Part shown: positions 5,787 to 64,000 of the stretch, piece by piece
Position numbering within the stretch: the first letter of the stretch is position 1
Layout: each line of letters starts with the position of its first letter
The notes under the pieces: generated by a model
The model's database searches: none
What the model was told of the DNA's origin: nothing
Seen by the model: only the letters and a program-made list of their open reading frames with translations
Program-made: the position numbers and the translations under genes
Assembly: GCA_002269645.1 (NCBI GenBank)
Contig: NIVC01000067.1
Coordinates: 124,001-188,000 of the forward strand
Length of the DNA: 64,000 nt
Direction of reading: 5' to 3'
Source: Macrostomum lignano
Taxonomy: Eukaryota

Positions 5787-17916
<12,130 letters not shown>

Positions 17917-55317: not shown

Positions 55318-55521
55318 GTGGTGAGTAGCGTTGCTACTCTGAGTTAGCGAACACGTCGGGGAGGGGCCGCCCCGGGCCTGTGTGGGCTCTCCGGTGTGCG
55401 TGCTCTGTCTGGCGGGGGGAGGGGTGGGTGCTTGAGTCCCCCCCGGCCCGGGGGGGTTTTTTAGGCCGCGCGGGGCTGCTCTGGCCCAGCTACCCTGTCT
55501 CGCGTTTGCAAGCTCAATTTT
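55318..55521 (+). repeat. Split direct repeat A1
   Basis: Starts GTGGTGAGTAGCGTTGCTACTC and ends GCAAGCTCAATTTT; duplicated at 59398-59603. Confidence 0.95.
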
Positions 55522-55562
55522 GCAATTTCTCAATTTCGCGTTTGTCAGCCAACTTGCTAAGC

Positions 55563-56603
55563 ATGAATCACAACAGCGAAGACACTGCTGAAAAGCGCCT
55601 AGAAAACTATACCGCACGTGAGTTAAGGCGCATGCTGGAACAACATGGTCTGTCCAGTTCTGGAAAGAAGGCAATCCTCATAGATCGCCTACGATCGGCA
55701 CGCCATGAGGACACCGATGAGACGCGAACATCTACGGCCAGCGAGAGAGCAGAGAGCGGCCCGGGAGGACGGCAGGCGGCGTCGGACCTGGATGTTCAAG
55801 CGGAAATCCAAGCTGCAGAGAGGCGCATCCGGCTGCTGGAACTCCAGGCAAAAGAGCGACAACTCAGAAGAGAGGCCCAAGCGTCGGAGGATCTCGAACC
55901 CCACCGGGCGGCACCTGAGAACCCGGAAGACCTTGGTGAGTTACTCAACGCTGTTAACAATGAGGCCACCCAGGACCAATGCTCGAAGCCCCAAATAGAC
56001 AGAGTTAGGCAACAGAGACAGGTGATGCTCGTCACGGACTTCCTCGGGGACGCATCCCGTTCGGCCGATGCCGTCCTGGCCCAGGGCGCTGAGGGCCAAC
56101 TTGTGCTCCGAGGAGCCAAAAGCAGCAACATGAAACCAGAGGCGGTGTCCGTCGGGCAGTGGATCATGGCAAACGCCCGGATCCTCGAGTATCTCCTCAA
56201 AACGAGACAACTCACGGATCAAACAGTCTCAGAATACTTGCAATACAACGTGCAAATCGGCGAGCTCCTCGACTGCGGCTATGAAACAGCTCGGGTGATG
56301 CGATTTGACGACAGCTTCCGACGCGCACAAGCCTCCACGGGGTGCTCTTGGGCCCAGCAGAACTTCTCACTCATCGCCCGGCATCTGGTAGCCCCGCAGG
56401 CAACAGCGACAAAGCAGCGCCCGCCAAAGCCACAGACAACTGCCAGGACAGCTCAGGGCATCCCCGTCTGCCGTGTCTTCAACCTACCAGCCGGCTGCCG
56501 TTTCCCAAACTGCAAGTATGCTCACGTGTGCCGCATATGCTTGCAGCCGGATCACACGGAGTCCCGGCACGGAACTGGCGGGATACCGACCACAAAAAAC
56601 TAG
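55563..56603 (+). CDS. gag: Ngaro Gag-like protein (346 aa): N-terminal SAP domain, coiled coil, C-terminal CCCH plus CCHH-type zinc knuckles
   Basis: ATG at 55563. YTARELRRMLEQHGLSSSGKKAILIDRL fits the SAP consensus. C-terminus has CRVFNLPAGCRFPNCKYAHVCRICLQPDH. Confidence 0.85.
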   Translation: MNHNSEDTAEKRLENYTARELRRMLEQHGLSSSGKKAILIDRLRSARHEDTDETRTSTASERAESGPGGRQAASDLDVQAEIQAAERRIRLLELQAKERQLRREAQASEDLEPHRAAPENPEDLGELLNAVNNEATQDQCSKPQIDRVRQQRQVMLVTDFLGDASRSADAVLAQGAEGQLVLRGAKSSNMKPEAVSVGQWIMANARILEYLLKTRQLTDQTVSEYLQYNVQIGELLDCGYETARVMRFDDSFRRAQASTGCSWAQQNFSLIARHLVAPQATATKQRPPKPQTTARTAQGIPVCRVFNLPAGCRFPNCKYAHVCRICLQPDHTESRHGTGGIPTTKN

Positions 56604-56631
56604 AGAGCGGCGGGGTTGCGAACCCCGCCGC
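56594..56631 (+). other. Predicted -1 programmed ribosomal frameshift signal
   Basis: Slippery heptamer A_AAA_AAC (56594-56600) in gag phase, immediately before the gag TAG. Then a 6-nt spacer and a perfect 11-bp hairpin GCGGCGGGGTT-GCG-AACCCCGCCGC. Pol is in the -1 frame. Confidence 0.8.
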
Positions 56632-59164
56632 GTGCGGCCCCACGCGGCCTCCTGCTGATTTTAACTCCACTTTTATCCCTGACGCTCTTCGCGGCAACAA
56701 CGCCGACATGAATCTAGCTGCTTGGTCTAGAGTTCTTCAAGAGGATGATGACCGCGAATTTCTTATGCAAGGCCTCCAAGAGGGGTTTCGCCTGACCACC
56801 GAGTACTCATTTCGCCAATCCGAGGTCGAGAACTACGGCTCATGCAAGCCGAACGAGAGTAAAGTCGAAAGGCAGCTTTACCGCGAGATCGAGTTAGGCC
56901 GCTACCGACGCGTCGCGAAGAGACCCACGAAAGTGTCTGCCATCGGCGCCATCGCCAAACCGGATGGAAATGTTCGGCTCATCCACGACTGTAGCGCTCC
57001 GGAAGGTAACAGCGTGAACTCCCATTTCACGGCTCCCTACAAGATCAAGTTTGAGACGATCAGTGACTTGACCTCGAAGCTGCAACCGGGGGCTTTCATC
57101 GCAAAGATTGATTTGAAGGAAGCGTACCGAGCCGTGCCCGTTCATCCGTCCAACTGGGACGTTCTCGGCCTGAAGTGGAAGTTCAGCGACAGCACGCAGC
57201 CAATCTACCTGGTGGACACCCGCCTGCCGTTCGGCGCCGCGGCGTCGGTGTACCACTTTAACCGGTTGTCGCAAGCAATCACCCGGGCGATGCAACGCAG
57301 CGGCTTCCATGGTATCTGCGGTTATCTCGACGACTGGGCCGTCACGGCCCCAACCAAGAGTGAGTGCTCTGCAGCATACGAGTGTCTGCTGACTCTGGTC
57401 CAGGAGCTCGGCTTTGAAGTCAACTGGCAAAAGGTCGTCCCACCCAGCCAACGCCTCATCTTCCTGGGTGTCGAGCTTGACACGCGCACAGGCAAGATGA
57501 ACCTGCCGGCCGACAAGCGCCTTGCCCTGACAGAGCTGATCGAGGACTGTAGCGCAAAAAGCGTCATCACCAGCAAGAAGCTACAACGACTGTGCGGCAA
57601 GCTCAGTTGGTTCTGCACCGTTGCTAGGCGCGCGCGCCCTTTCCTACGCGACCTGCTGAAGCTGTGCGACCAGCACGACGGAGGCCGTATTCCGGTATCC
57701 AACGGTCTTAGGCGCACCCTGAACTGGTGGAGACAAGCTGTTTCCACTCTCTTCAGCGCGCCCATCTGGCCGCATTTCCCCCGGCGGATTGTCATCGAGT
57801 CCGACTCCTGCCTCGAGGGCGCATGCTGCGTCATCCGGGAGAACGGCGGTGTCAATTGGCTGTACGTGAATTGGCAGCTGGACGCTGGAGCTGCTTTTAG
57901 CGGGCTGCACATCAACTTCAAAGAAGCGCTGGCCCCTTTGTTGTGCACCCTGCGCCAGCCGGACGCGTTTGAACACGCCAAGATTACCGTGTACACCGAC
58001 AGCAGTGCCGCGGCGGGCCTCATCAACCGGCTGTCCTCCGGCTGTCAGCAGGTCAACGAAGTCATGAAGACTGTTGCGCTCCTCTGCATGCGGCGTAACG
58101 TCGAGATTAGGGCTTTTCATGTCCCTGGCGCTTTCCAAGTGTTTAGTGACCCGGGTTCCAGACTCCATACTCGCGAAGGCCTCCTGAATTTTGCTTTTCG
58201 CATGTACGGCGGCCTCGAGAATTTCTCCGCCGCCGAATTTGCTTGTCATGCTGCCAGTTTCTGCTCTGCGCTTTTGCTTTTGTTTCAGGTCCGGCGCTGC
58301 CGCCTCACCGCGTCACCGGGCCGTTCCGCTCTCTGCTCCGCGCCGCTTGGGCTCCAAGAACGCGCGACGCATACCGACACGCCTTCTCACGCTGGGAGGG
58401 CTTCTGCAAACGACGGGGCACCTGCCCGTCAAACGCGCCTGGCCTTGAAGTTGCCGCCTTCGTGGGATTTCTGCACCACGACGGGCAGGTTGGCGACTCG
58501 GCAGTCCAGCACGCCCTGGCCGTCATCAGCTGGGCTCATCGACTGGCGAACCGGCCAGACCCGACCACCGGCGCTATCGTGCAACTGGCAGTGCGAGGTG
58601 CCAAACGCCAGCGAGCGGCAATACAGCAGTGCCGAACAGCGAAGCCGCTGTCCAAAGAGGTCCTATTGCGAATTTACCAAGCCTGCCAGCCACTCAGCCC
58701 AGCGCAACGCTGCTTCTGGGCCGCCCTGCTGTGTGGCTTCTTCGGCCTGCTCAGATGCGCCAACCTGTTCTCACCGCGCTCATGGGCCCGCGCAAGTGAC
58801 CTGCAGTGGAACACCGACGGAGCCCGGCTCCGCATCCGGGTGTCCAAAACCAATCAGCTGGGGCAACGGGACCAGTATGTCCAGCTGCCAAGACTGGCCA
58901 GAGGACATCCGCTCTGCCCGGTGGAGGCACTCTCTAAACACCTGTCGAGCAGCGGCATCTGCCCGACCACGACACCCGACTGGCCACTGTTCAGCTTCCG
59001 CTGTAGCCGCGGTCGGCGTGCCATGTCAGCTCCGGGTTTTAACCGAATGCTTCGCCGCTCCCTTGACGCCGCAGGGGTGCCATCCTGCCAGTTCTCCGGT
59101 CACTCGATGCGACGTGGCGGCGCCTGCCACGCGTTCGAGGCGGGCCTCTCGGTCGACGACGTAA
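56600..59164 (+). CDS. pol: Ngaro Pol: reverse transcriptase plus RNase H (predicted Gag-Pol fusion ~1200 aa)
   Basis: RT motifs KIDLKEAYRAVPV, LPFGAAAS, GYLDDW, IFLGVELDT. RNase H motifs IESDSCLEG, HINFKEALA, VYTDSSAA, HVPG...SDPGSR. The frame stays open across the recombinase ORF. Confidence 0.92.
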   Translation, partial: LESGGVANPAACGPTRPPADFNSTFIPDALRGNNADMNLAAWSRVLQEDDDREFLMQGLQEGFRLTTEYSFRQSEVENYGSCKPNESKVERQLYREIELGRYRRVAKRPTKVSAIGAIAKPDGNVRLIHDCSAPEGNSVNSHFTAPYKIKFETISDLTSKLQPGAFIAKIDLKEAYRAVPVHPSNWDVLGLKWKFSDSTQPIYLVDTRLPFGAAASVYHFNRLSQAITRAMQRSGFHGICGYLDDWAVTAPTKSECSAAYECLLTLVQELGFEVNWQKVVPPSQRLIFLGVELDTRTGKMNLPADKRLALTELIEDCSAKSVITSKKLQRLCGKLSWFCTVARRARPFLRDLLKLCDQHDGGRIPVSNGLRRTLNWWRQAVSTLFSAPIWPHFPRRIVIESDSCLEGACCVIRENGGVNWLYVNWQLDAGAAFSGLHINFKEALAPLLCTLRQPDAFEHAKITVYTDSSAAAGLINRLSSGCQQVNEVMKTVALLCMRRNVEIRAFHVPGAFQVFSDPGSRLHTREGLLNFAFRMYGGLENFSAAEFACHAASFCSALLLLFQVRRCRLTASPGRSALCSAPLGLQERATHTDTPSHAGRASANDGAPARQTRLALKLPPSWDFCTTTGRLATRQSSTPWPSSAGLIDWRTGQTRPPALSCNWQCEVPNASERQYSSAEQRSRCPKRSYCEFTKPASHSAQRNAASGPPCCVASSACSDAPTCSHRAHGPAQVTCSGTPTEPGSASGCPKPISWGNGTSMSSCQDWPEDIRSARWRHSLNTCRAAASARPRHPTGHCSASAVAAVGVPCQLRVLTECFAAPLTPQGCHPASSPVTRCDVAAPATRSRRASRSTT

Positions 59165-59268
59165 AGCAGCTCGGTGGCTGGCGCAGCAACGCCGTTCTGC
59201 GCTACCTGCCGCTCTCGGGCGGCTCTCGGCGTGTTGTGGGAGCTTTGGCGGCTGCCGCCGAAGCCTAA
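58289..59268 (+). CDS. Tyrosine recombinase (YR); predicted second exon joined to gag 55563-55935
   Basis: Catalytic set intact: GLLRCANL (R), RVSKTNQLG (K), GHSMRRGGA (HxxR), GGWRSNAVLRY (W,Y). There is no in-frame ATG between the stop at 58147-58149 and the catalytic core. A strong acceptor lies at 58287-58288. Confidence 0.9.
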
Positions 59269-59323
59269 TTTTCTGTTTTACTGACTGCTTCCCCCTCGCC
59301 TCCTCTCCTGTTGTTTGGTGTTT

Positions 59324-59603
59324 GGCCTGTTCCGCCCGGGTTCGTCTTCCTCGCCCGTGCCGTGCCTTTGCCTTCCTTCCTCGGCGTCGTTCGTTAAGTG
59401 GTGAGTAGCGTTGCTACTCTGAGTTAGCGAACACGTCGGGGAGGGGCCGCCCCGGGCCTGTGTGGGCTCTCCGGTGTGCGTGCTCTGTCTGGCGGGGGGA
59501 GGGGTGGGTGCTTGAGTCCCCCCCGGCCCGGGGGGGGGGGTTTTAGGCCGCGCGGGGCTGCTCTGGCCCAGCTACCCTGTCTCGCGTTTGCAAGCTCAAT
59601 TTT
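59324..59603 (+). repeat. Split direct repeats B1 (59324-59397) and A2 (59398-59603)
   Basis: Contiguous B1-A2 junction CGTTAA|GTGGTGAG. Confidence 0.95.
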
Positions 59604-59695
59604 TTATTCGATTTTATTTTCCCCCTTTAAAGCCACATTTGTCTTTTAATCGCGTTCGAACTGAGCTCACTAAAATATAATCGACCAATCACAAG

Positions 59696-59769
59696 GGCCT
59701 GTTCCGCCCGGGTTCGTCTTCCTCGCCCGTGCCGTGCCTTTGCCTTCCTTCCTCGGCGTCGTTCGTTAA
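59696..59769 (+). repeat. Split direct repeat B2
   Basis: 74-bp exact copy of B1 (GGCCTGTTCCGCCCGGG...GTTCGTTAA). Confidence 0.95.
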
Positions 59770-60102: not shown

Positions 60103-61618
<1,516 letters not shown>

Positions 61619-61640
61619 AATCTCACAGTGTCGGTCTTAC

Positions 61641-64000
61641 TGGAAGTCGATATTCGCGCCGAAGTATGCGTCCTCTGGGTACATGAATGCGACCGTGGCC
61701 GAGTTAAACATTTCGTCAGCAATGTACACCTTACTGCAGTTGGCTCGGGCCGCATACAGGAGAGCCGTGTAGTCCGTCAAGCAGGCTTCCTTCCCTTGGA
61801 ATGTCTGGAAATTCAAATGCATCAGGAAATAAATAATCGTTATGTAGATGAAGAGAAAAAAAGTTGAATGAAGAGCTGAATGAACCTGTTCAATGCACCC
61901 AGGGATAGTGTCTGAAATCTGTAGTTTGTCTGCAACTTGTCTATATACGCCGCCGGTGCTCGTAGTCAGCAGATTGTATAGATTTGTTCCTTCAGGTACC
62001 AGTGGCTTAACAGCAGACTGAGCCACCAGATCGCTTAGCGTTTTTATGGGCAAATCCGTGAAGCTGATCGTCAGATGGGCCGTCAGGTCGCCTGCAAGTG
62101 TAGCGAAATCAAGATCCAACCCGTGACATTTCTGAGTTCAACTTTCAGGTTTCCAAGGCCTTTAAAATAAAAATATTTGCACCCTCACCCGTGTAAGTTC
62201 CATAAATGATGACGGTGAACATCCACCAGAAGGCCAGCACAGCTCTTGGAGACATGGCAAACGGATAAAAGTCCTGACCCTGCTGCATGAAGCTGCCAAC
62301 TATACTCCAAATGTACTCCTGCAGCCAGATCTCATCAGCAAAGGCAAACTCCAGTCTCAGGTTGTAGGCAGTGAATGGAGAGAAATAAGCCAGCACCCAC
62401 GTGACTGCGGCGGAGACAAAGATGAAAATAATGACTAGAATCCACACATCGTAATTGAACGGAGTGAAAACATTCCACAGCTTGGACTTGGGCGGAGGCC
62501 GGGGCACCAGAATTCCGTACGCTTCTTGGAAAAGTGGCGTTGAGAAGTCGACTACGCCGTCGCGGGTGGTAGACTTGGTGAAGGTGGAACCTCCGATGGA
62601 AACAATCTGAAGGTTGTCAAACAATATGTGATTACTAATTGTTCCATATTTATTCCAATTATGATCAACTTCGCAGGAAAATACTCACTCCTCTCTGTAC
62701 TTCTCCGACGCATCCGGAGAAGTAGCTCTTTCCAGCCTGCGGCCCGCCCCACTGGCCATCGTCAGGCACCTTCACGCTGTACCTAAGATGACGATGAAGA
62801 TTCAGCGAATCGTAAACATTGGTTCAGCACCACCTAAAATAGGCGACAGATCTAACGAAATCATTCACTCACCGAAAGTCCAAGCGCGCTGCAAGGATAT
62901 CCAAGACATCCTTTAGCATTCCACCCACAATCACCGTCTTGTTAGGAAAGGTTTGTCGATATATTGTAAAAGGAAAAATCTGAAATTTCGAATACGAGAA
63001 ACTTTAAAATCTGCAAAGATTTGTTCAAAAACTGGATCAGAAGATAACAAATATTGACCAACTTCAGTGCTACAGATACGAATAGTTTCGTTCTTGAACC
63101 CCAGGAATGTGTTTGGGAACACGAGGCTCACGCCCTTCTCTCTGAACAAAACGCTTAGCGCTCCACTCTTGGTGTTGTACATTCCCGACTGAATGAACTG
63201 AATAGGTGATGACAGTTTCTGGTTGAAGCTTCCCACCACTTCGATGCCCTGCGAGTCGAAGTGACCGGTGGTCGAGTTGAACGAGATCACTCCTCGGTTC
63301 GAGTTGTAGCCGGACATCTGTTATTACATTTCAGTGGTCAGGAGAGTAAGTCTGCATTCGATAGTAGGCGTAAAAAGCAACTCCGATTTTTAAAGCACTC
63401 AACTCACGCTTGTCAGCTTCGAATAGACGGACGGCCCCGAGCTCCACACCTGCAGAGGATTGCAGGCAGCGTTGCTGACATTGAACGTCGACTCAGTGAC
63501 CGCATCGTTCAGTGCCTTCGCCAGAGCCTCGACTGCATCAACGAATCGAGTGTCCAGTGTCTGCAATTGTCAGAATTTTCAGAATTTCAGCGTTGCAGTT
63601 TTCACATCGACCATTTTCATAGCTTGCAGCTATGCTCAACCGTTTCACTGCTCACTCGGATCCAGTCTGTGTCGCAGCTGTCGAATACGTCTCGCACAGG
63701 AGCGGAACATGATCCGGGAACGTTGATTCCGGTTGTGCCTCCTCTGACGAGAGCGACATTCGAGTTCGAGATGATGTGGTGTCTTATCTGTCCTTTTGCG
63801 ATTCCCGTATCGATGATGAGCCAAAAGTAGTTCTGCTGCATCACCAGTGACGCGTTTGCGTGATCAAGAATTGCGAAGACGTTAGCTGGTTCGGCCAGCA
63901 CCAACATGTGGAACACCTTCTTCTTCAGAAGTCGAGTCATGTGAGCGTTGAGGTCCGTGACCAGAGCTCCGCTATTTGTGTCCACTTGGAATGTGAGCGA
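61641..64000 (-). CDS. Ionotropic glutamate receptor-family subunit, partial (5' end beyond window, M4 exon not securely found); exons >64000-63656, 63560-63408, 63317-63063, 62979-62873, 62782-62689, 62606-62189, 62091-61886, 61804-61641
   Basis: S1 motifs: ICSTE|IFPF, GMLKDVLDILAARLDF, DGQWG, TRDGVVDFSTP. M1: FTPFNYDVWILV. Pore: IVGSFMQQG. M3: RAVLAFWWMFTVIIYGTYTG|DLTAHL. An S2 region follows. All listed junctions are GT-AG and phase-consistent. Confidence 0.88.

Follow-up and report, generated by a model that had tools for sequence, protein, structure and literature searches.

We analyzed a stretch of 64,000 nucleotides from Macrostomum lignano (contig NIVC01000067.1, positions 124,001 to 188,000 of the forward strand), referred to as the window, in whose coordinates all positions are given. 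It carries a single, intact copy of a Ngaro-type tyrosine-recombinase (YR) retrotransposon at 55318-59769, and the expression of its recombinase is the subject of this report. The gag, reverse transcriptase/RNase H (RT/RH) and YR genes follow one another on the plus strand. The gag open reading frame (ORF; 55563-56603, 346 aa) encodes a SAP domain (residues 13-46), a linker, a coiled coil (72-110), a core and C-terminal Cys/His fingers. The pol frame (56309-59164), which is -1 relative to gag, encodes a reverse transcriptase (PF00078, detected with Pfam) and an RNase H-like region. The YR frame is open at 58150-59268, its upstream limit being an in-frame TGA at 58147-58149, where the initial annotation of this DNA had placed it.

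The genes are bounded by split direct repeats, all on the plus strand. The left-end repeat A1 (55318-55521, with loose ends at 55318) is 97.6% identical to A2 (59398-59603), with which it was paired by self-comparison, and B1 (59324-59397) is 100% identical to B2 (59696-59769), which forms the right end. The arrangement A1...B1-A2-B2, with internal repeats 3' of YR, and the gene order are those of Ngaro elements, which are defined by split direct repeats with internal repeats beyond YR (PMC4157794, PMC8547959; here and below, papers are cited from excerpts); the window element is assigned to Ngaro by this layout, not by a tree. Pfam scanning of the pol frame detected only RVT_1 and no methyltransferase domain; membership in the PAT/DIRS group, which would place such a domain after RNase H, was ruled out. 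A DIRS1-like element was also ruled out, as self-comparison revealed direct repeats only, with no inverted terminal repeats or internal complementary region.

Predicted splice sites and their conservation

The YR frame lacks only a start codon. Its predicted exon (58289-59268) encodes complete core-binding and catalytic domains and can be aligned to residues 34-338 of Cre (E 1.6e-21; PDB 1nzb and others), so that the whole recombinase is covered. The R-K-H-R-H/W-Y set of tyrosine recombinases is present as R155, K186, H271, R274, W297 and Y305, invariant in 19/19 aligned sequences. The first in-frame AUG lies at 59023, beyond R155 and K186, as had been claimed; it is 292 codons past the TGA and 245 past the predicted acceptor, rather than about 260 codons into the frame.

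We propose, with a probability of roughly 0.85, that the recombinase is translated from a spliced RNA that joins gag codons 1-124 to YR and drops the gag core and pol. The predicted 5' splice site, CTTG/GTGAGT (GTGAGT at 55936-55941), ends coding exon 1 (55563-55935) in phase 1, after 373 nt of gag counted from its ATG at 55563. The predicted 3' splice site (58262-58288) consists of a polypyrimidine tract and CAG, reads ...TTTTGTTTCAG/GT, and places its AG at 58287-58288, also in phase 1; by splice scores built from hand-set simple weights it ranks first among the 244 AGs of the element. Since both sites are in phase 1, the exon lengths add up to 450 codons (124+1+325). The intron of 2353 nt (55936-58288) would span the gag core and RT/RNase H, and combines consensus 5' and 3' sites, preservation of the frame and conservation, as expected of a spliceosomal GT-AG intron. 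Both sites, the 450-aa product of Gag residues 1-124, Gly and YR, and the position of the intron inside the gag and pol frames are thus as the initial annotation had described them. Among copies of the same family, all 8 loci that span this position retain the donor at 55936. An alternative phase-1 GTGAGT at 55618, which scores equally in the window copy, is lost in three loci (L002, L005, L012), and an acceptor-like site at 55547 is likewise not retained in related copies; both were rejected.

The acceptor is conserved among highly divergent families of the same genome. A protein search of this genome gave 123 matches among 658 candidates, all 123 of which were scored. We tested 42 loci, comprising 40 stretches picked to cover the visible families and two copies of the family of the window element; the 38 loci with intact YR represent 16 families, with a median YR identity of 34%, and one further group with stops brings the number to 17. 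The best acceptor in a 320-nt search window is in phase 1 at the YR start in 39/42 loci, and a phase-1 acceptor stands at the homologous YR start in 16/17 families, the only family without one (L099) being represented by a 5'-truncated copy. All 16 representatives share CAG at -3 to -1, T, A or G at -4, and mostly T from -5 to -15. The acceptor usually overlaps the tail of pol, whose frame reads CAG as Gln in all 12 families tested. In the 12 of 16 families with an open pol frame, the pyrimidine tract scores 101, compared with a mean of 61 and a maximum of 84 in 20,000 synonymous shuffles of the pol frame. In the family of L082, L083 and L088 (3 loci) the pol frame is one base off against the AG, and YR phase 1 is retained.

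A matching donor was found in gag. Each of the 12 families whose gag starts with ATG carries a phase-1 donor downstream of the coiled coil, between codons 105 and 147, in a linker that otherwise shows no conservation. It is spelled GGT GAG in 11/12 families, compared with 3/22 other Gly-Glu pairs and 52/292 other Gly codons. In codon shuffles, donor phase 1 (12/12 seen) had a mean of 7.8 and was matched in 2/400 trials; phase together with place (11/12 seen) had a mean of 1.9 and was matched in 0/400 trials, the window for place, codon 100-150, having been set by hand after the data were seen. Position and phase, whose conservation across families the initial annotation had proposed as a check, are retained at both sites.

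Relatives in metagenomes, which are probably animal DNA, point the same way for the acceptor. Using the best 80 of 112 relatives, of which 65 have a visible YR start and form 51 clusters, we found the best acceptor in phase 1 within -25 to +20 nt of the YR start in 41/51 clusters; control windows gave 6/39, 2/44 and 3/50. In the 41 clusters, position -3 is occupied by C (30) or T (11). The YR frame of the metagenome clusters is closed at a median of 28 nt upstream. In other hosts, too, the acceptor is likely a general property of such YR frames. The best donor is in phase 1 in 19-20 of 24 metagenome gags, often right before the core.

Predicted gene models of the expected composition were identified among the best 150 profile matches; those of flatworm, amphioxus, acorn worm and limpet are predictions, not transcripts. 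The M. lignano model P0135 (UniRef A0A1I8J2F9) consists of SAP, coiled coil, Gly and YR, and the two ends that it joins are exactly those predicted for family L084. The RefSeq models P0143/P0221, P0125 and P0095 carry a pre-donor gag front on YR and have no gag core. When 11 long candidates were compared with gag profiles, the pre-donor profiles matched RefSeq models from Branchiostoma belcheri (2), Glandiceps talaboti and Patella vulgata (E 1e-6 to 9e-4, Z=1000), and the gag-core profiles matched none of these models. Splicing of this kind would explain a class of 'uncharacterized' animal gene models.

Expression model and competing explanations

In the proposed route, a single promoter near the A1 end would give rise to unspliced and spliced RNA. 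The unspliced RNA would serve as genome and as template for Gag and, via a -1 frameshift at A AAA AAC, Gag-Pol, and the spliced RNA would encode the gag front-YR fusion. The gag front would provide the start codon of YR, which follows from the sequence if splicing occurs; it would likely bring non-specific DNA binding through SAP, and the shared coiled coil may tie YR to Gag. The likely frameshift signal of the window element (56594-56635, plus strand) comprises the heptamer, the gag stop and a strong 11-bp hairpin (z -2.1). The heptamer stands at the gag stop in 9/12 families (those of the window element, L063, L070, L072, L076, L079, L084, L087 and L094), and the gag ends of L090 and L098 have instead an in-frame TGA followed by CT(A/G), which we take to be a readthrough context. 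Frameshift and readthrough thus seem to be exchanged between families at this position. The pol frame of the window element remains open for about 290 codons across the YR exon (58289-59164), and long pol/YR overlaps also occur in the families of L074-76, L082/88 and L096. In most families pol stops 24-300 nt past the acceptor, and the long YR-overlapping tail is not conserved.

The splicing model finds strong support in the conservation of the splice-site signature, and of where and in which phase the sites lie, across families and taxa. Several observations weigh against it, beginning with the scores, which do not come from a trained model, and the post hoc donor window. CAG alone is explicable as the pol Gln (p 0.064). 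An upstream in-frame ATG of YR is present in 3 groups of the same genome, and an ATG in the YR frame occurs ahead of about residue 20 in 22/51 metagenome clusters. The donor phase in metagenome gags is nonsignificant against shuffles (20/24 vs a mean of 17.4; 57/400 trials). Other M. lignano models (P0075, P0225, P0226) join differently, two of them using the same acceptor. A precisely intron-less genomic copy was not found in the five families searched; two candidates were ordinary deletions on closer look.

RNA gives the main counter-evidence. The initial annotation had proposed to look for the 55935-58289 joint in RNA, and we covered 4 of 24 listed sequencing runs, three of which (X1, X5, X6) are guessed to be RNA and one of which is probably DNA. 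Neither this joint nor any other GT-AG joint was present in contigs of these 4 low-depth runs. In X1 and X5, contigs run unspliced through both sites, and in X6 through the acceptor (depth 4-15), the X1 contigs also covering the flank, so that DNA may be present. The joints seen in the 4 runs are imprecise deletions, all of which also occur in the probable DNA run. The missing joint is weak counter-evidence, since contigs drop minor forms. The splice model put forward earlier is sustained by its conserved sites, and its RNA joint was not seen.

The YR protein might instead come from a short RNA of its own, made from an internal promoter in pol, or from reinitiation, with a near-cognate start or, in those families that have one, an AUG further upstream; the tract and AG would then be there by chance or belong to a non-coding 5' exon. 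The CTG/TTG codons in frame at 58243, 58261, 58297 and 58333, the early ATGs in metagenome clusters and own-genome groups, and the missing joint in the runs examined all suit such a start. We consider it improbable, as it leaves unexplained both an acceptor phase fixed at 1, a non-coding first exon needing no phase, and the matching phase-1 donor in 12/12 gags. A second ribosomal frameshift, from pol into YR, would yield a Gag-Pol-YR polyprotein and reduce the acceptor motif to a Gln-containing pol tail. Relative to pol, YR does lie in frame -1 in most intact families, with overlapping frames, and the pol frame has Gln at CAG in 12/12 tested; however, no X XXY YYZ motif occurs in the overlap of the window element and none is common to families, YR is in the +1 frame in one family, and the tract is richer in pyrimidines than encoding the pol protein requires. 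The T at -3 in 11/41 metagenome clusters and the closure of their YR frames shortly upstream also speak against frameshifting, making it very unlikely.

Least probable in our estimate is spliced-leader trans-splicing at the acceptor, with the leader giving the AUG. The nearest named proteins are from a flatworm, flatworm spliced leaders end in AUG, and the acceptor is strong on its own. However, splicing of an AUG-terminated leader would be in phase 0 and would therefore enter the pol frame, not YR, and phase 1 is fixed across families; the low-depth runs contain no leader-like loose end at 58289.

The gag front and target choice

As the initial annotation had recognized, the Gag part of the predicted fusion combines a SAP domain (PF02037, residues 13-46; E 1.7e-8, 34.3 bits vs a cut-off of 23.9) with a coiled coil, seen as a long helix at residues 72-110 in the predicted structure model. 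SAP is matched in 12/12 gag fronts of this genome at E<=0.01. In fold comparison, the top matches are SAP domains, but none reaches E<=0.001. Among longer proteins, a SAP front gave 5 matches, 4 of which are gene models of one flatworm species. SAP is absent from all 16 metagenome gags scanned, two of which (L111, L122) have weak SAM matches. A SAM-like front was observed in a clade of relatives (the gag N-termini of L104, L108, L111, L113, L116, L122 and L166, and the model P0095). By domain matching, the SAP front is limited to the clade of this genome, other relatives having SAM-like or coiled-coil fronts; the general principle would then be a fused gag front rather than SAP (12/12 vs 0/16).

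SAP domains bind AT-rich or structured DNA, and SAP likely adds non-specific DNA binding to the fusion. The window copy does sit in AT-rich DNA, as had been noted (flank GC 0.29 and 0.34 over 100 nt). The 18 complete copies have median flank GC of 0.43 and 0.39, compared with 0.48 in ten arbitrary 5-kb stretches, a mild AT bias that could reflect survival in non-coding DNA and is no demonstration of steering by SAP. The earlier suggestion that the Gag module steers target choice stands on weaker ground than the splice model, and a steering role of SAP has weak support at best. The right ends of the complete copies, the B repeats, mostly end in TAA or TTAA, likely the circle-junction and target motif.

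In the Cafeteria Ngaro elements of Hackl et al., loss of ORF1 coincides with AT-rich virophage DNA no longer being preferred, and Gag is suggested there to influence target choice (PMC8547959). These elements share the Ngaro layout, and the excerpted text proposes no mechanism or splice; a gag-front/YR fusion would supply one and would explain the change of target on ORF1 loss. The splice model would connect Gag with target choice in a simple and testable way.

Relation to known systems

Ngaro elements are described as three separate ORFs with no splice (PMC8547959, PMC9210276, PMC4157794, PMC3783388). The window element resembles them in its A1-[gag, RT/RH, YR]-B1-A2-B2 layout, the downstream position of YR on the same strand, the overlapping frames and the lack of a methyltransferase match, and differs in the predicted splice-joined gag front-YR. 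In the excerpts listing three ORFs, how the third protein of YR retrotransposons is produced is not addressed. The string 'splic' is absent from the excerpted text of PMC9210276, PMC3783388, PMC8547959 and PMC3266345. In agreement with the initial annotation, which knew of no such account for Ngaro, we found no description of a spliced gag-YR RNA in excerpts of the literature on YR elements (PMC4495291, PMC7192593, PMC9210276, PMC6681497, PMC8547959, PMC3783388, PMC4157794, PMC9341512, PMC3266345, PMC2632668), the founding Ngaro paper, a 2015 review and Repbase notes lying outside this search. A SAP-bearing gag in YR retrotransposons likewise had no literature match. The founding work of 2004 reportedly mentions introns in some YR elements, so that a prior mention of splicing is possible. 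What is described here is very likely a conserved splice-based expression route, predicted from conserved sites.

Retroviruses express env from a spliced subgenomic RNA. The predicted route is similar in that gag-pol would be spliced out of the genomic RNA as an intron to give access to a downstream gene; in contrast to env, the product would be the integrating enzyme, and it would keep 124 Gag residues with two folded modules. Retroviral integrase, in contrast to the predicted YR fusion, comes from the Pol polyprotein. Ty1/copia is said to make Gag alone from its spliced RNA, whereas that of the window element would encode a recombinase fusion. In both cases splicing would balance the proteins of one retrotransposon RNA, as described for the spliced gag RNA of Ty1/copia (PMC5580714, PMC3735527). 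Cre shares R-K-H-R-W-Y with exon 2 and is a single ORF without an N-terminal SAP/coiled-coil module. If the splice is conserved, the annotated YR ORF would fall about 120-250 residues short of the real Ngaro integrase, and biochemistry on that ORF alone would use a truncated enzyme. Host splicing would also be a control point for these elements. It is conceivable, though we rather doubt it, that Ngaro elements across animals make an env-like spliced RNA and carry their recombinase on a swappable Gag front (SAP, SAM-like or coiled-coil) serving particle recruitment and insertion steering.

Several minor observations concern these elements and the window. Solo A-B units of the window element's family are numerous (L014, L016-L020, L022-L025, L030), the expected outcome of recombination between split repeats. 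A deleted copy (L191; G000:C462, 480-2146) has lost gag and pol but still has YR and the four repeats; its repeat A runs directly into the pyrimidine tract at a point 14 nt before the acceptor. At L071 and L072, two different Ngaro families lie head to tail, a few hundred bases apart, which hints at clustered insertion. A long (ATCT)n array lies beside the window element at 60104-61620, with similar composition at about 12000-15000. Finally, a minus-strand exon at 62145-62684 belongs to a ligand-gated ion channel gene (PF00060, E 1e-14) and ends in a GTGAG donor like that of the element.

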